Positions 4,333 to 35,993 of a stretch of DNA of 64,000 nt are shown here, piece by piece. Within the stretch, counting starts at the first letter, position 1, and each line of letters opens with the position of its first letter. Both the position numbers and the translations under genes were made by a program. The DNA comes from an uncultured Clostridia bacterium (GTDB lineage: Bacteria; Bacillota; Clostridia; Christensenellales; Borkfalkiaceae): positions 1,449 through 65,448 of the forward strand of contig CANQFA010000008.1 in NCBI GenBank assembly GCA_947597925.1, written 5' to 3'. The notes below the pieces were generated by a model. That model saw only the letters and a list, made by a program, of their open reading frames with translations. It did not search any database and was not told where the DNA came from.

Positions 4333-5154
4333 TCATTCTATGCCGAGACGCTCGAGTGCCTCGGCGGCGTCGGCGTCCCCGTCGTCTGCGGCGCGCTCAT
4401 ACCGGAGGATCGCCTGTTCGAGGTCTTTTTCGGTGCCGATGCCCTCTTCGTAGCATCTGCCCAGTGCGGTCTTCGCCCACAGGCAGTCGCGCTCGGCGGA
4501 GGCGCGGTAGAGCGAAAAGGCCTTCTCGGCGCTCTTCTCCGTCCCGTTGCCCGCTTCGGCGCACACGCCGAGGTAGTACAGGGCAAGCGCATCGCCCTGC
4601 GCGGCGGCCATATGGAGCCAGCGGACGGCCTCTTCGTAGTTCTGCTTGATATAACCTGTCGTCTCGTCGGACATCCCATAGCCGTGGAAATAGAGCATGC
4701 CGAGGTCATATTGTGCCAAAAGGGAGCCCCTTTCGGCGGCCTCCGCAAGCAGGGCGCGCCCCTTTTCGAGGTGTGCACGCATGCCCAGCCCCTGCGAATA
4801 GATGCAGCTGAGCGCATAGAGGGCATCGGCATGTCCGCCCTTCGAGGCCTTTTCGTACCACAGGCGGGCCTCGTTCCATTCGTCCTGCGCGATGCCGCGG
4901 TTATCCCGCTCGAAGATATTTAAGGGCGCGCGGAGATTGGGGCTTCCCGAAGGGATCTGATCGCGGATATAGGCGATCTTCCTCTCTGCCTCCCTCTCGT
5001 AAAAGGCCCCCATGAGGTACTGCGCCTCCGTCTCCCCTCCGTTTGCGCGGGAGAGCAGGGCGGCGAGCGCCCCTTCGTCTTCGGGAAGGTCGAGCTCTAC
5101 GCTCGCCTCCATGCAGAAGGGAACTTTTTCGAGGTTCAGAGTGATGGGCAGCAT
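4333..5154 (-). CDS. Sel1-like repeat (SLR/TPR) protein
   Basis: Repeated A.Y.LG.CY..G.G...D...A..WY..AA motifs. AAGGAG SD upstream of 5154. Confidence 0.8.
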   Translation of the reverse strand: MLPITLNLEKVPFCMEASVELDLPEDEGALAALLSRANGGETEAQYLMGAFYEREAERKIAYIRDQIPSGSPNLRAPLNIFERDNRGIAQDEWNEARLWYEKASKGGHADALYALSCIYSQGLGMRAHLEKGRALLAEAAERGSLLAQYDLGMLYFHGYGMSDETTGYIKQNYEEAVRWLHMAAAQGDALALYYLGVCAEAGNGTEKSAEKAFSLYRASAERDCLWAKTALGRCYEEGIGTEKDLEQAILRYERAADDGDADAAEALERLGIE

Positions 5155-30273: not shown

Positions 30274-32352
30274 TTATCTCACGCTGTAGAAGAGCTCATT
30301 GTAGGTGGGATAGGGCCAATAGTCGGACGCCGTCTCCGTCTCCATGGCGTCGCCGAGGGCACGGAGCGCCTCCATATCGGGGACGATGACATGGGCGATG
30401 GCGTGCGAGGCGAGCACTTCGCCCGTGGGCACTTCGCCGAGGTCCTTTTCGAGCTTTTCGGCGACCTTGCGGAAGGCTTCATTCTTCTCGGAGAGCGACT
30501 CCGCCACCGCCATGTCCGCGGAGCAGGCGATCTTTTCGCTGATGGACTGCTTTGCGGCGATCGTCGAGCACAGGTCGGCGATGTACGAATTGACGGCGGG
30601 CCAGATGTCCTTTTTCGCCATATCTATCATCGTCTTCGCCTCGATGGTGACCGTCTTGGTATAGTTCTCGAGGGCGATATTGGCGCGCGCGAGCACCTCC
30701 TTTTCGGTGTATACCCCTTGCCGCACGAAGACGTCGATATTTTCCCGCTTGAAAAATTCGGGCACGGCGTCTGCCGTCGTCTTGTTGTTGAGGAGTCCCC
30801 TCCTCTCCGCCTCGGGCTCCCAGTCGGGGCCATAGCCATTGTAGTTGAAGATGATGCGGTAATGCTCCTTGAGAAGCTTTTCGGTATACCGCTTGCACGC
30901 CTTCTCGAAATCTTTCGCCCCCTCGAGCGCCTCGACCGCCTCTGCAAAGGCCTGCGCGGCGATGGTATTGAGAACGATATTGGGGTCGGCGACAGACGCC
31001 TGCGAGCCGAGCATGCGGAATTCGAACTTATTGCCCGTGAAGGCGAAGGGCGACGTGCGGTTTCTGTCCGTCGTGTCGATGGGGAAGATGGGGCTCTCGG
31101 GCACGCCGATGGAACCGGGGACGGCCTTTCTCGGCACATATTCCCTGCCCATGACGATGGAGTCGACGAGGGCGCCGAGCTGGTCGCCGAGATAGACGGA
31201 GATGATGGCGGGCGGCGCTTCATTGGCGCCGAGGCGGTGGTCATTGCCCGCCGAGGCGACGGATGCGCGCAGGATGCCCTGATAGTTGTCCACCGCCGCA
31301 ATGACGCAAGCGAGGATGAGCATGAAGCGAGGATTGTTCTCGGGCGTCTCGCCGGGGTCGAGGAGGTTGAGCCCCGCATCGGTGGAGAGCGACCAATTGT
31401 TGTGCTTGCCCGAGCCATTGATCCCCTCGAAGGGCTTCTCGTGGAGGAGACAGACGAGTCCGTGCTTTTTGGCGACCTTCTTCATTAGCTCCATGGTGAG
31501 CTGATTGGAGTCGACGGCGACATTGGTCGTCGTGAAGACGGGCGCGAGCTCGTGCTGGGCGGGGGCGACTTCGTTGTGCTTGGTCTTGGCGAAGATGCCG
31601 TAGCTCCAGAGCGTCTCGTCGAGGTCGCGCATGTATTCGGAGATGCGGGTCTTGAGCGAGCCGAAATAGTGGTCCTCGAGCTCCTGCCCGCGCACCGCAT
31701 GGGCGCCGAAGAGCGTCCTCCCCGTGAGGATGAGGTCCTTTCTCGCGTCAAAGAGCTTTTCATCGATGAGAAAATATTCCTGCTCGGGCCCCACCGTGGT
31801 GGAGACCTTTCTGCACTCGATACCGAAGAGTTTGAGCAGGCGCTTTGCCTGCGTATCGAGCGCGGTCATGGACTTCAGGAGGGGCGCCTTCTTGTCGAGC
31901 GTCTCACCCGTATAGGAGACGAAGACGGTAGGGATATAGAGGGTGCCCTCCTTGACAAAGGCGGGAGAGGTGGGATCCCATGCGGTATATCCGCGCGCCG
32001 CGCTCGTCGCACGCGCTCCGCCCGTGGGGAAAGAAGAGGCGTCGGGCTCGCCCACGATGAGCGATTTGCCCGTGAGCTGCATGATGACTCTGTCGCCGTC
32101 GGGCTCGATGAAGCTGTCGTGCTTTTCCGCCGTGAGGTTGGTGAGGGGTTGGAACCAATGGGTGTAGTGGGTGGCGCCTTTGGAGACCGCCCAATCCTTC
32201 ATGGCATTGGCGACGGCACTCGCGATGGAGATGTCGAGGGGCTGTCCCTCGTCGATGGTCCTTCTCAGGGACTTGTAGACCTCCTTGGGGAGGAGGTTCT
32301 TCATGACCTCGTCGTGAAAGACGTTGCTCCCGAAGAGCTCTGTGACGTTCAT
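30274..32352 (-). CDS. glnN: Glutamine synthetase type III
   Basis: 692 aa from [29 protein letters not shown] (typical GSIII N-terminus). AAGGAG SD. The track start at 32469 is rejected. Confidence 0.9.
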
Positions 32353-32425
32353 ATGCTGCACTCCTTCAAGATTAGATTCGTCGTGAGACACGCGGCGGAG
32401 GATCCTTTCCGTCCGTTCCTGCATT

Positions 32426-32454
32426 ATTATAGAGTTTTTTGCGGAGAAAGTCAA
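32426..32454 (-). promoter_or_regulatory. Near-consensus sigma-A promoter of glnN (TTGACT-17-TATAAT), with a perfect 6-2-6 palindrome GTCAAA-NN-TTTGAC (32450-32463) over the -35
   Basis: Read on the minus strand: ...ggcgGTCAAACATTTGACTttctccgcaaaaaactcTATAATaatg... Confidence 0.55.
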
Positions 32455-32621
32455 ATGTTTGACCGCCAAAGCAGCCGCCCCGAGACAACAAAAAAGCTGA
32501 TAGCAGGCATAAGCACAGGTTATTTTATCGCGGGAAATATAAGTGCAGCTTATGGGAAAATTCGCAAACTCCCCTATTTTGCGCCAAAAACTGCAATTTT
32601 TCAGATTTTCCTATAAGAAAA

Positions 32622-32882
32622 AGCAGACCCTTTGCGATCTGCTCTATTTTACAGTTTTCTTCCGCGAGGGACGAAGAGACGGACCCGCCGCGGGAGCACC
32701 TCTATCTCGATATCTCCCCGCGTCCCCTCCTCGCCGTCAAAGTCCCACACGAGGTTTTTTTGCGTGCTGATGCGGACATGCCTCCCCCGCATGACGTCGA
32801 CCCACCTTCTCCGCCGCCCGATCCCGAAGAGCATGAGGCGGACGAGGGAGAGATAGGAGAGAAATTTTCCGAGGGCGCCCTT
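32622..32882. repeat. Left copy (261 bp) of the duplicated 3' end plus terminator of the dagK-family gene
   Basis: Aligns with 34341-34619. I count 6 mismatches plus one 18-bp indel. Confidence 0.9.
32649..32882 (-). pseudogene. Orphan 3' fragment (last 77 codons) of the DAG-kinase-family lipid kinase gene
   Basis: Encodes KGALGKFLSYLSLVRLMLFGIGRRRRWVDVMRGRHVRISTQKNLVWDFDGEEGTRGDIEIEVLPRRVRLFVPRGRKL, almost identical to the C-terminus of 34386-35282. It retains the native hairpin (32623-32642) and T-tract. Confidence 0.85.
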
Positions 32883-32913
32883 CTGCTTGACAAAATTTAA
32901 GGAAGGTATTAAA

Positions 32914-33291
32914 ATGAGCATAGTTGGCTTTTTGCTCAAGCCGAAAAAAGAAATGGCGAAAAAGGGAACAAGATATGTAAAGGTCGGTAAATACTATCTG
33001 ACTTCCCATGCGCAGAATCGGATCGTTCAAAAGGAAAGGACTATGGATAAGGTCGATGTTTTGGACAATCTGTTTACGAAGCCCAATGCCATTACACAAG
33101 TGAAATACAATAAAAGCGGCAAACCCTCATATGATCGTGTGGGTAAGAGAATTACGACAAGTATCAATCCAACAAACAACTATGTTGCGACTTGTCGACC
33201 TGTAAGCAAAAAAGAAATTAAACAATTCGTTTTGACTGATATCGGAAAAGGAGGAAAAAGGAAATATGTTAAACAAGAGTCCAGAAAGTAA
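32914..33291 (+). CDS. Small basic protein (125 aa) with a DUF4258/RelE-superfamily-like signature; putative toxin
   Basis: AAGGAAGG SD 7 nt before the ATG at 32914. KYYLTSHAQNRIVQKERTMDKVDVLDNLFTKPNAITQ...YDRVGKRITTSINPTNNYVATCRPV matches the DUF4258 pattern x-H-A-x-x-R-x(3)-R-x-[IM]-x(3)-V-x(2)-[VL]...V-[IV]-T-x-Y/R. K/R-rich. Overlaps the next ORF by 26 nt. Confidence 0.6.
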   Translation: MSIVGFLLKPKKEMAKKGTRYVKVGKYYLTSHAQNRIVQKERTMDKVDVLDNLFTKPNAITQVKYNKSGKPSYDRVGKRITTSINPTNNYVATCRPVSKKEIKQFVLTDIGKGGKRKYVKQESRK

Positions 33292-33541
33292 ATTCACGCC
33301 GAGAGCGAAAGAGGAAGCTAAAAAACTTTTAGCCGAAATGAATATAACGGAGTTGAACGACGACAACCTTTATGAGGTCGAAGTTGAGCTTGACACAAGG
33401 GTAAGCGGATTGGTTACGATGGACGAAAGCGAACACCGGCCGATCGATCATGAGCTTTTGGAAATTTACGATACACTGACGGATATTATTCTGGAGCACG
33501 AAGAAGAGATCGATTTTCTAAATAAGCTGTTTTTGGAATAA
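33266..33541 (+). CDS. Small acidic protein, paralogue 1 (91 aa); candidate antitoxin or immunity protein
   Basis: AAAGGAGG SD. Shares F-x(2)-A-x(n)-[ND]-x-[DE]-x-L-Y-[DE] and the C-terminal [DE]-I-D-F-L-N-K-L-F-L with the next two ORFs. Confidence 0.6.
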   Translation: MLNKSPESKFTPRAKEEAKKLLAEMNITELNDDNLYEVEVELDTRVSGLVTMDESEHRPIDHELLEIYDTLTDIILEHEEEIDFLNKLFLE

Positions 33542-33580
33542 AAAGGAGCGGAACGTCATTGAAAAATTTCGGAGGGAATT

Positions 33581-33901
33581 ATGGAAACGACAAAGGTCAA
33601 ATTTTCGCAGTCGGCGGTTGATTTTATTGCGAAGTATATGATTGAAGAGTTTGGAATAACGGGCGAAATCAACGAAGATATGCTGTATGACATATATGAC
33701 ATATATGTTGCGGCAGACGACTACGATTCCTTTTTCGCGACCCGCGAGATTGACCCGCAATTCGTTTTTGACGAAGAAAAATCCAAAGCGGCAGGTGAAT
33801 TTACAGCGGAATACGACAGTGTGGTTTTAAGGGATAAGACGTTTGACTTGGATGACCTCAACCGCCGTTTGGGATTGCGGAAAACAGGCCCAAACGCATA
33901 G
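33581..33901 (+). CDS. Small acidic protein, paralogue 2 (106 aa)
   Basis: GGAGGG SD. FSQSAVDFIAKYM...INEDMLYDIYDI...DLDDLNRRLGLRKTG. Confidence 0.65.
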   Translation: METTKVKFSQSAVDFIAKYMIEEFGITGEINEDMLYDIYDIYVAADDYDSFFATREIDPQFVFDEEKSKAAGEFTAEYDSVVLRDKTFDLDDLNRRLGLRKTGPNA

Positions 33902-33957
33902 TTCCACCATTGACTTGCCAATTCGGCTTGACCGATATCGGAAAAGGAGGCAGCGAA

Positions 33958-34278
33958 ATGAAAAAAAGAAATAAAAAGACGGAACAAGAAACAACGCTCT
34001 TTCCCGTCAGTGAAGAAGCAATTGAATTTATCCGCACATACATCCTTCCCATGAAACATATCGACTATATTGACGAGGATGTATTTTATGATATTTTTGA
34101 TATTGCTGAAAGCTGGGAACTCGATATGATCGACGAAAACGGATTTGACAAGACAGATGATCCGTTTACAGAACGGAATACAATGGGAATGAATTTCGTC
34201 TCTGAAATATCGGGGCAAGATGGCGAGCCGGATCTTGATGACCTCAACCGCCGTTTGGGATTACGGAAAACAAATTAA
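33958..34278 (+). CDS. Small acidic protein, paralogue 3 (106 aa)
   Basis: AAAGGAGG SD before the ATG at 33958 (the track TTG start at 33910 is rejected). FPVSEEAIEFIRTYI...IDEDVFYDIFDI...DLDDLNRRLGLRKTN. Confidence 0.65.
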   Translation: MKKRNKKTEQETTLFPVSEEAIEFIRTYILPMKHIDYIDEDVFYDIFDIAESWELDMIDENGFDKTDDPFTERNTMGMNFVSEISGQDGEPDLDDLNRRLGLRKTN

Positions 34279-34292
34279 CTTCTTTGACTCGA

Positions 34293-34327
34293 CCAAAAGT
34301 ATTTTCAGAAATACTTTTGGTTTTTTA
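34293..34327 (+). terminator. Strong rho-independent terminator closing the cassette
   Basis: ccaaaagtattt-tcag-aaatacttttgg followed by TTTTTTA. Confidence 0.8.
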
Positions 34328-34340
34328 TGATCCCTTTTGG

Positions 34341-34619
34341 AGCAGACCCTTTGCGATCTGCTCTATTTTACAGTTTTCTTCCGCTTTACAGTTTTCTTCC
34401 GCGAGGGACGAAGAGACGGACCCGCCGCGGAAGCACCTCTATCTCGATATCTCCCCGCGTCCCCTCCTCGCCGTCAAAGTCCCACACGAGGTTTTTTTGT
34501 GTGCTGATGCGGACATGCCTCCCTCGCATGACATCGACCCGCCTTCTCCGCCGCCCGATCCCGAAGAGCATGAGGCGGACGAGGGAGAGATAGGATAGAA
34601 ATTTTCCGAGGGCGCCCTT
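34341..34619. repeat. Right copy (279 bp) of the duplicated dagK 3' end. It includes an internal 18-bp tandem duplication (34367-34384 / 34385-34402) spanning the stop codon
   Basis: Direct alignment with 32622-32882. Confidence 0.9.
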
Positions 34620-35282
34620 TCCCCGCTTGAGGACGGCGAGCTCGAGGGTGCCGTCCTGCATGCTGGCGCTGCGGTTGACGGGGAAGCCCGCCACCGACCG
34701 TCCGTTCATGACGAAGACGAGCATGCCGTCCCCCTCGCTCACCCGCTGTCCGCACTCCACGCGCACGGGAAAGCTCTCGAAGGGGAAGCACTTCCCGAGC
34801 CCGCGGAAGAGATAGGCAAACCACCCGAAGGCGCGCTTTTCGCTCTGCGGCGTCTCGTAGGTGATGCGGGTGGGCGTCCCCGCCGCGGCGATATACATGG
34901 CATAGCGGGTGCCGTTGATGCGCATGCAGTCGAGTTCGGCGCTCCTTCCCTTCAGGATGACGTCGATCGCACGGAGGGGATCGCGCGGGATGCCGAGCGA
35001 GCGCGCCACGTCGTTTGCCGTCCCCGCGGGGAGATAGCCGAGCTGGACGCGGGAATCGCCCAATCCCTCGAGCACCCGCTGAAAGGTCCCGTCACCGCCC
35101 GAAAAGACGATGACATCGTAACCCGCGGCGCCCCGCTTTACCCACTCCGTCAGGTCCTCGGCGCTCTCCGTCGCGTGGACATCTACCTCATAGACACGCT
35201 CGAGCTTCTTGGTGATGCGCGCCGCCTTACGCGCGGTCTTGCCCCGCCCGCTCGCGGGATTGTAGAGGAAAAGGCACTTCAT
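34386..35282 (-). CDS. Diacylglycerol kinase family lipid kinase (YegS/DagK-like)
   Basis: MKCLFLYNPASGRGK...VIVFSGGDGTFQRVLEGL...GYLPAGTANDVARSLG motifs. Confidence 0.88.
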   Translation of the reverse strand: MKCLFLYNPASGRGKTARKAARITKKLERVYEVDVHATESAEDLTEWVKRGAAGYDVIVFSGGDGTFQRVLEGLGDSRVQLGYLPAGTANDVARSLGIPRDPLRAIDVILKGRSAELDCMRINGTRYAMYIAAAGTPTRITYETPQSEKRAFGWFAYLFRGLGKCFPFESFPVRVECGQRVSEGDGMLVFVMNGRSVAGFPVNRSASMQDGTLELAVLKRGKGALGKFLSYLSLVRLMLFGIGRRRRRVDVMRGRHVRISTQKNLVWDFDGEEGTRGDIEIEVLPRRVRLFVPRGRKL

Positions 35283-35318
35283 CTGCTTTAGTATTTCCCG
35301 TTCGGTAAGATTTCACGC

Positions 35319-35993
35319 TCAGGCGAAATATTCCCCCGCGTTGAGGACGGAAAAGGCGAGGGCCACCTCGAGATAGCGGACATCTTTGGGAAAGAGGAGG
35401 TCCTCGCTCAGCTCCCGCGCCCGTCTCGCCTCTTGGAGGAGCTCGGCATTCCAGAGCCCGAAGGCGCCCTCCCCGTTGTCTTCCGCAAGCCCCGTGAGCG
35501 TCTTCGCGACCCCGAGAAGGCGCGCCCGCGCCTCCTCTTGCCCGAAGTCGAGCCGCTCGAGCCCATTTGCCGTATCATAGAGAAGGCGGGCACAGCTGTC
35601 GAGGGTGCGGGCATTTGCCTCGATGCGCGCTCTCTCCTTTCCGTCCCGAAGGGGAAAGGGCTCCGTCCTCCTCTCGATGACGCGCACAAATACCCCTCTT
35701 TCGGACATGGTATGGGCAACGAAGGTCGCATCGGCCTCTTCGAAGTAACACGCGAGCACGACGGCCCCCTCCTCTTCCCAGAGATATCCCGCCCCGCCCG
35801 CGGCATAACTTTCGCCCGAGACGGCGCCCGCGGTCGTGCTCTCGCAGTCGCGCACGAGAAAATAGTAGCAGAGGCCCGCGTCGACTTTCGCCCCCGCAGA
35901 GCCGAAGACGCCCGCGAAGAAGGTGATGAGAAGGATGAAGAGAAAGCATGCGGCGGAGAGGACGGATCCGCCGCGCGGAAGGCGGAATTTCAT
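35319..35993 (-). CDS. Membrane-anchored hypothetical protein (possible SPOR-like domain)
   Basis: MKFRLPRGGSVLSAACFLFILLITFFAGVF TM anchor. The start is uncertain (poor SD spacing). Confidence 0.5.
   Translation of the reverse strand: MKFRLPRGGSVLSAACFLFILLITFFAGVFGSAGAKVDAGLCYYFLVRDCESTTAGAVSGESYAAGGAGYLWEEEGAVVLACYFEEADATFVAHTMSERGVFVRVIERRTEPFPLRDGKERARIEANARTLDSCARLLYDTANGLERLDFGQEEARARLLGVAKTLTGLAEDNGEGAFGLWNAELLQEARRARELSEDLLFPKDVRYLEVALAFSVLNAGEYFA

Follow-up and report, generated by a model that had tools for sequence, protein, structure and literature searches.

What does a run of three small, acidic and mutually related proteins do directly behind a basic one? The question is raised by a locus in a stretch of 64,000 nucleotides from an uncultured Clostridia bacterium of the Borkfalkiaceae (contig CANQFA010000008.1 of assembly GCA_947597925.1; the whole stretch is called the window below), in which a gene for a basic protein is followed by three tandem genes, A1, A2 and A3, coding for acidic mini-proteins. 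A first-pass annotation, made from the letters alone, had picked out the acidic trio and offered two readings for it, an immunity or antitoxin array directed at the toxin-like upstream gene or a set of DNA-mimic-type anti-defense proteins. We propose that the cassette is likely a toxin-antidote operon, which couples a predicted RNase-type toxin of the DUF4258/BECR superfamily to A1 as its cognate neutralizer and to A2 and A3 as orphan neutralizers.

Profile search settles the homology of the upstream protein to DUF4258 toxin domains. A profile of its family, searched against 1.8 billion representatives, recovered the toxin core (profile positions ~25-106) at the very C-terminal end of proteins 330-2056 aa long, which Pfam recognizes as Phage_portal, Mu_F, minor capsid protein 2, VgrG, RHS or TPR proteins and whose C-terminal DUF4258 domains score 28-33 bits against the Pfam cut-off of 25. 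In an hhalign comparison, the toxin family and these C-terminal domains align with a probability of 99.6% and an E-value of 1.2e-23 over 93 columns, with the His, Arg and INP motifs in register. Across the toxin family, H32, Q34, Y73 and R75 are invariant, N35, R36, R42 and the I84-N85-P86 triad are nearly so, and H32, R36 and R42 are in register with the His and Arg that are invariant in the polymorphic-toxin domains. DUF4258 is listed as a BECR toxin family of unknown activity in type II toxin-antitoxin systems (Gerdes 2025, PMC11980606). The modeled fold suggests a BECR domain, in which N-terminal helices pack against a small antiparallel sheet: the top PDB matches of an AF2 model of the toxin (pLDDT 92.3, pTM 0.84) are BECR RNase toxins, namely CdiA-CT NC101, CdiA-CT O32:H37, a colicin E5-type RNase, RelE and colicin D, with TM scores of 0.43-0.59 and, for CdiA-CT NC101, a Foldseek probability of 0.96-0.97 at E ~0.06. 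The first of these, CdiA-CT NC101, is a tRNase of the BECR type and needs a His and an Arg (PMC5737660). In BFVD, matches reach an E-value of 8e-6, with a phage protein named as a DUF4258 domain protein only at rank 13 (E 0.08).

The close homologs of the toxin form 110 clusters, none of them annotated, and the members of the clade are free-standing proteins of about 105-150 aa, which, unlike the polymorphic-toxin domains, have a conserved N-terminal segment, MSILGFLFKPKKEM; fusion to RHS, VgrG, MuF or portal proteins is confined to distant homologs. A PDB sequence search with the toxin profile gave no match, and neither did tblastn of the toxin against 50,697 phage and 72,556 plasmid records. 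Homologous C-terminal toxin domains are also borne by an RHS fragment (L069 1401-2869) and by a phage minor-capsid-2 protein (L070 2501-4124), each followed by a small acidic ORF (84 aa with a pI of 4.8 and 69 aa with a pI of 4.05, respectively) that has no sequence similarity to the acidic family studied here.

The tie between this toxin and the acidic proteins is best seen across genomes. We examined 49 genomic loci of the toxin family (given L numbers), all of them from metagenome-assembled genomes (MAGs) of uncultured gut Clostridia, Christensenellaceae or Bacilli from rabbits, humans and ruminants; 47 have enough downstream DNA to be assessed. A member of the acidic family lies directly 3′ of the toxin gene in 47/47, usually overlapping it, and the co-occurrence with a DUF4258-like gene that had been named as a check is complete among these loci. 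The two partners are of opposite charge (pI 10.3 for the toxin versus 4.3 for the acidic protein) and are joined into a single ORF in two loci, of 202 aa at L035 3196-3804, where the partner has lost its own start, and of 227 aa at L039 4974-5657, where an internal Shine-Dalgarno (SD) site and ATG are retained. Close relatives (L038 and L050) have separate genes, and the fusions, as observations from single MAGs, could be sequencing errors; toxin-antitoxin gene fusions are common in the BECR superfamily (PMC11980606). The partners also co-vary: their pairwise identities are correlated with a Mantel r of 0.85, which 0/2000 permutations equaled, and there is no pair of near-identical toxins with dissimilar partners. 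Type I toxins (PSYxRIGK) are accompanied by acidic proteins with FLN tails (n=14) or DLN tails (n=4), type II toxins (QYDRxN) by DLN tails only (n=24) and never by FLN-tail partners. Within this tight association the acidic partner evolves faster, its mean pairwise identity being 30% versus 49% for the toxin.

The acidic proteins belong to a family of at least 215 clusters at 90% identity, recovered with a profile of the different types; most are of the A1 type of 90-92 aa, and no cluster found carries a Pfam domain, a name or any other library annotation. A2 used alone as the query brings up only 9 clusters of relatives. The family hallmark is the C-terminal motif, which comes in two flavors, DLDFLNxLFF and DLxDLNxRLGL, and which, by the alignments, is the most conserved element of the family. 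The three members in the window are the tandem acidic paralogs that the first-pass annotation described, with pI values of 4.34 (A1), 4.23 (A2) and 4.31 (A3). The mechanical start of the third ORF is TTG 33910, and ATG 33958, which has GGAGG 7 nt upstream, yields a protein of 106 aa in agreement with its 106-aa orthologs. A2 and A3 have 19-31% identity to A1, and the invariant residues of the trio cluster in the D-x-L-N-x-L stretch of a common C-terminal helix, D-[LIF]-x-x-L-N-x-[LR]-[LF], as had been seen by eye. The N-terminal blocks proposed for all three fit A2 and A3 well and A1 loosely (FTPRAKEEAKKLL; LNDDNLYEVEVE). All three genes have strong SD sites and orthologs in other genomes; dN/dS against orthologs from other genomes is 0.05-0.22 for these and the toxin gene, and this purifying selection on all four indicates that they are real genes.

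In an AF2 model of toxin and A1 concatenated into one chain, A1 is a bundle of about five helices, the last being formed by the motif. None of the four small proteins of the window gave anything meaningful when scanned against Pfam, PHROGs, NCBIfam and PADLOC (the best E-value of an acidic protein against PHROGs was 0.0024), a PDB sequence search with the acidic-family profile gave no match, and Foldseek of the fused model against PDB and BFVD gave none attributable to the acidic half, the top PDB matches aligning ~85 columns to toxin domains of ~88 residues. At ranks 4, 5 and 7-10 in BFVD stand Lactococcus and Lactobacillus phage proteins of 177-189 aa that align over ~190 columns of the fused model, with E-values of 5e-4 to 4e-2 and very high RMSD; they might be two-domain relatives. 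The motif resembles FtsZ C-terminal peptides and MinD-type membrane-targeting helices, a likeness that we set aside because the motif variant tracks the toxin subtype.

Why, then, should there be three acidic genes behind one toxin gene? A1 shares 81-94% identity with the acidic partners of the closest toxins (L017-L020) and represents the majority type, the one found with type I toxins such as that of the window. A2 elsewhere follows type II toxins and A3 a third subtype, and the window has neither toxin gene. What it does have, in the spacers of 39 nt before A2 and 56 nt before A3, are remnants of toxin-gene ends with the SD site of the gene that follows (Table 1). Sister arrays are in flux, with A1 and a disrupted A2 in L017, A1 and A3 in L019, and A1 and an A3 fragment in L020, and further arrays are present in L025, L043 and L053. 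Remnants and fluctuating arrays together make the pattern of orphan immunity or antitoxin genes seen in contact-dependent inhibition (CDI) and Rhs loci and in the acquired interbacterial defense (AID) clusters of the gut. Judged from these sequences, A1 is most likely the cognate partner, and A2 and A3 are most likely orphan antidotes left behind by lost toxin genes. The array reading of the first-pass annotation is thus the favored one, on the strength of the toxin homology and BECR-like model, the synteny, the co-variation and the toxin-end remnants before the second and third paralogs, with the refinement that the adjacent toxin has A1 as its sole cognate partner, A2 and A3 being orphans of subtypes absent from the window.

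Some further features of these genes may be recorded here. At L007 3901-4212 an A2-type gene stands alone between htpG and a gene for an AraC-type regulator, an orphan outside any array, with no toxin gene or remnant detected nearby. The A2 of the window ends in GPNA rather than N, near the APNA ending of this solitary copy, and contains a perfect 9-nt tandem duplication (GACATATAT twice, DIY-DIY) at 33689-33706 that is absent from all orthologs.

A2 and A3 share more than a protein motif. The 35/36 nucleotide identity of their tails, first noticed by eye, is real (Table 1), and the remainder of the two genes has heavily diverged, with 43% identity (100/234) at aligned codon positions upstream of the motif. 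Identical residues are encoded by the same codon in 11/14 cases inside the motif versus 10/26 elsewhere. Across genomes, A2-type and A3-type tails agree on average at 30.5/36 nt (range 28-33), and a CTC Leu codon is used solely by the two copies of the window; the identity within the window is thus beyond what protein conservation alone gives. In several genomes A2-type and A3-type genes have the tail in common together with the 3′ untranslated sequence that follows, which makes the tail a common recombination end. The extra synonymous identity within the locus points to gene conversion or to a shared recombination end. Of the two explanations that had been put forward, strong selection on the segment and gene conversion, both apply, as the segment encodes the most conserved element of the family and shows an excess of synonymous identity as well. 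It is not a known RNA element, since an Rfam scan of 32000-35500 found no RNA family. A pair of inverted repeats (I3/I4, 33605-33621 versus the conserved tails) was set aside, its 10-nt perfect complement being about the chance expectation in 1 kb.

We posit the following mechanism. The basic protein would be a stand-alone RNase-type BECR toxin, and A1, translationally coupled to the overlapping toxin gene, would bind and neutralize it. The acidic helical mini-proteins would constitute one fast-evolving family of neutralizers, in which the C-terminal amphipathic helix may dock on the conserved catalytic face of the toxin (H32, R36, Y73 and R75) and the variable helical body may set subtype specificity. 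A2 and A3 would each come from a pair of another toxin subtype, the toxin gene of which was deleted down to the last codons that bear the ribosome-binding site. Both are kept by selection and could neutralize related toxins from incoming copies of the element, from phages or from neighbors, in a role of anti-addiction or acquired immunity. Being without a DNA-binding domain, the acidic proteins resemble immunity proteins more than classical type II antitoxins, and the system, which has neither a DNA-binding domain nor a delivery domain, is situated between the antitoxin and the polymorphic-toxin immunity categories.

Table 1. Features of the toxin-antidote cassette and its borders (positions in the window)
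Feature	Position	Strand	Remarks
Direct repeat, left copy (261 nt)	32622..32882	.	terminator hairpin and last ~78 codons of the lipid kinase gene
Low-GC island	32883..34340	+	36-48% GC inside a 58-68% GC genome; holds the toxin gene and the three acidic genes
Basic protein, 125 aa, pI 10.3	32914..33291	+	stand-alone divergent DUF4258/BECR superfamily toxin domain
A1, 91 aa, acidic, all-helical, FLN-tail majority type	33266..33541	+	overlaps the toxin gene by 26 nt; presumed cognate partner
Type II toxin gene remnant, last ~8 codons (SLKNFGGNY), and SD for A2	33556..33580	+	aligned with the L040 and L001 toxin ends
A2, 106 aa, acidic, rare type (9 clusters)	33581..33901	+	orphan here; type II toxin partner elsewhere (L001, L040)
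36-nt segment of A2, encodes DDLNRRLGLRKT	33851..33886	+	35/36 identical to the A3 segment
Type I toxin gene-end remnant and SD, before A3	33919..33950	+	32-nt repeat (D4) of 33223-33254, 91% identical
A3, 106 aa, acidic	33958..34278	+	orphan here; third toxin subtype partner elsewhere (L046, L058, L060)
Matching 36-nt segment of A3	34237..34272	+	35/36 identical to the A2 segment
Terminator-like hairpin and T run	34291..34322	+	after A3; sole one on the + strand of the cassette
Direct repeat, right copy	34341..34619	.	belongs to the intact lipid kinase gene 34386-35282 (-)

The cassette occupies a horizontally acquired low-GC island of 1.46 kb, with a type III glutamine synthetase-like gene on one side and a DAGK/YegS-type lipid kinase gene on the other. 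With a single terminator on its strand, after A3, the four genes look like one operon. The flanking direct repeat was detected as two matches (D1, 235 nt at 97%, and D2, 44 nt at 100%); its copies differ at 7 positions, and the right one has an additional 18-nt tandem duplication (34359-34402). The left copy gives rise to a truncated ORF (32649-32939, minus strand), and the duplication of the kinase 3′ end leaves the kinase ORF intact. A Campbell-type single crossover or a very long target duplication may be the origin of this arrangement; an exact-protein look-up for the kinase locus without the island returned only island-carrying contigs and no empty site. The left junction, 32882/32883, lies 31 nt 5′ of the toxin ATG and shows microhomology (GGCGCCCYT...GCTTGA) with the cassette of L019.

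At most other loci the toxin pair is one half of a ~2-kb low-GC module, the other half being a divergent gene for a protein of ~250 aa and a lysine-rich gene of 43 aa; the window has the toxin half only and lacks these two genes. The ~250-aa gene (L001 4570-5458, minus strand) is in the same place in about 36 other loci (e.g., L017 4031-4798 and L038 598-1599), and its product is highly conserved, with N33, Y84, R129, L132, Y135, R143 and E144 invariant. Neither this protein nor the 43-aa one has a match in Pfam, PHROGs, NCBIfam, PADLOC or PDB, and the suspicion, from its sequence, that the larger one is an RHH- and WYL-like regulator was supported by no tool. At L015 (4146-4757, minus strand) its place is taken by an unrelated 203-aa protein with an HExxH-like motif, HEMRH, which may be a metallopeptidase. 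The module has imperfect inverted repeats of ~40 bp at its borders in several MAGs from rabbit gut (L047 ~3720-3770/5694-5735; also L040, L046 and L056), each made up of a TCCCTATGGAA box, a hairpin and a T run; the two arms of L056 match at ~33/40 positions as counted by eye. The window retains only a degenerate right-hand box, GATCCCTTTTGGAG, at 34329-34342. At the loci with these repeats no target duplication or empty site was identified, and no recombinase is recognizable in the ~2-kb module; its occurrence at different chromosomal sites in different genomes implies that it is mobile. We tentatively entertain, as an unlikely reading, that gut Clostridia and Bacilli harbor an undescribed mobile module of ~2 kb, of which the pair makes up the half that serves for addiction or as payload and in which the ~250-aa protein may be a recombinase or regulator of a new kind, and that the orphan arrays are acquired immunity. 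If so, the orphan arrays would counter the same-superfamily toxins that phages inject on portal/MuF head proteins.

Several observations weigh against the toxin-antidote operon. The window toxin has no match to Pfam DUF4258 (PF14076) at E<=1, and 3/67 members of its family match PF14076 at all, the best at E 0.013 and thus below the gathering threshold; the toxin is accordingly a divergent clade of the superfamily and not a Pfam-defined member. The Foldseek E-values against PDB, at ~0.06, are not significant alone. The concatenated chain of toxin and A1, modeled with unpaired homologs, has confident domains, reaches a pTM of only 0.61 and supports no interface. The acidic proteins are without a recognizable DNA-binding domain (HTH, RHH, AbrB or Phd) and without a match in Pfam, NCBIfam or PDB. 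The lack of a delivery domain on the toxin puts the selective value of orphan antidotes in doubt, and the pair's usual ~250-aa and 43-aa partners, with no known relatives, could alter the picture. Expression, too, is uncertain in the window: L017 and L019 have (at about 4930-5000) a promoter-like TGCTATAAT ~55 nt before the toxin ATG, and this native element is missing from the window, where a TTGACA-17-TAAAAT match at 32887-32915 overlaps the toxin start codon.

Other explanations have been weighed against the same evidence. Synteny, co-variation and fusions show a partnership but not its sign, so the acidic proteins might be helpers of the basic protein (a chaperone, an activator or an export adaptor) rather than its inhibitors; that they are small helical bundles, and that the toxin has an N-terminal segment which the polymorphic-toxin domains lack, would suit such a role. 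We nevertheless hold it to be improbable: partner arrays that outlive their toxin genes and retain toxin-end remnants are typical of antidotes, a helper deprived of its client would not remain under purifying selection, and there are no secretion genes in the module or nearby. Equally improbable is that the pair sits inside a larger four-gene conflict or defense module, with the acidic protein as a sensor or switch that frees the toxin on phage infection and with extra paralogs that broaden the range of sensed triggers. The divergent linkage of the ~250-aa gene in about 36/45 loci, the location of the ~2-kb low-GC island at varying chromosomal sites and the faster evolution of the acidic partner speak for this version; yet the window and about 9 other loci keep the toxin and acidic genes without the ~250-aa gene, and no PADLOC defense model was matched. 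It would moreover extend the toxin-antitoxin reading rather than exclude it.

The second option of the first-pass annotation, that the acidic proteins are DNA-mimic anti-defense proteins of a mobile element with no functional relation to the upstream gene, has their small size, their strong acidity and their place on a horizontally acquired low-GC island in its favor. As a separate function we consider it very improbable, since tblastn of A1 and A2 against the same phage and plasmid records found no relatives, PHROGs and structure searches gave no match, and the proteins are invariably linked to the toxin, at times fused to it, and co-variant with its subtype. An acidic RNase inhibitor may, for its part, act by nucleic acid mimicry. 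Lastly, A2 and A3 might be functionless, decaying leftovers of recombination, for which the disrupted A2 of L017, the A3 fragment of L020 and the lack of the cognate toxin genes in the window speak. There is very little chance of this: in the window neither ORF is disrupted and each has a strong SD site, dN/dS is 0.08-0.22 (against four orthologs each), and identical or near-identical A3 proteins occur on many contigs.

The toxin-antidote operon that we favor has parallels in several known systems and equals none of them. The H-A-x-x-R...R and I-N-P motifs, together with a predicted BECR-like fold, are common to the window toxin and the DUF4258 (PF14076)/BECR toxins; the window toxin differs in belonging to a clade below the Pfam threshold with an additional conserved N-terminal segment, in having the toxin gene first, as opposed to the A/T order listed for DUF4258 (PMC11980606), and in its partner, which is a new acidic helical family and not an MqsA-, HTH- or RHH-type antitoxin. 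The CdiA-CT/CdiI and Rhs-CT/RhsI systems are similar in that the structure closest to that of the toxin belongs to CdiA-CT NC101, which is dependent on EF-Tu, that the immunity gene lies directly downstream, that toxin and immunity protein co-vary, and that displaced toxin ends are followed by intact immunity genes. Unlike in those systems, the toxin here is free-standing (105-135 aa), with no delivery domain and no secretion system nearby, and the hosts are Gram-positive-type gut Clostridia and Bacilli. AID clusters, known from gut Bacteroidales, consist of orphan immunity genes in arrays (bioRxiv 10.1101/471110), and in both cases gut bacteria gather immunity genes without the matching toxins on mobile DNA. 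However, AID arrays are long, recombinase-associated and protect against type VI secretion system effectors, whereas here three paralogs of one family stand beside one resident toxin, and no delivery route is known for the foreign toxins. Barstar and the colicin D immunity protein are acidic inhibitors of RNases related by fold. Like these, the small acidic proteins of the cassette would block a basic RNA-binding face, and the fold matches of the toxin include the complex of colicin D with its inhibitor (1tfo); the likeness is one of principle only, as the acidic family has no sequence or fold match to them.

What is known here is the kind of system; what is new is the acidic family, which is unannotated in Pfam, NCBIfam, PHROGs and PADLOC and has no solved structure, and which now gains a testable role as the neutralizing partner of a DUF4258-type toxin. 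With its natural subtype variants, the pair of 125-aa and 91-aa proteins offers a convenient handle on the target and the specificity of DUF4258, a large BECR family. The three-gene array and its decayed sister versions illustrate the gain and loss of orphan antidotes in uncultured gut Firmicutes, a group whose toxin-immunity ecology has received far less study than that of Bacteroidales and Proteobacteria.

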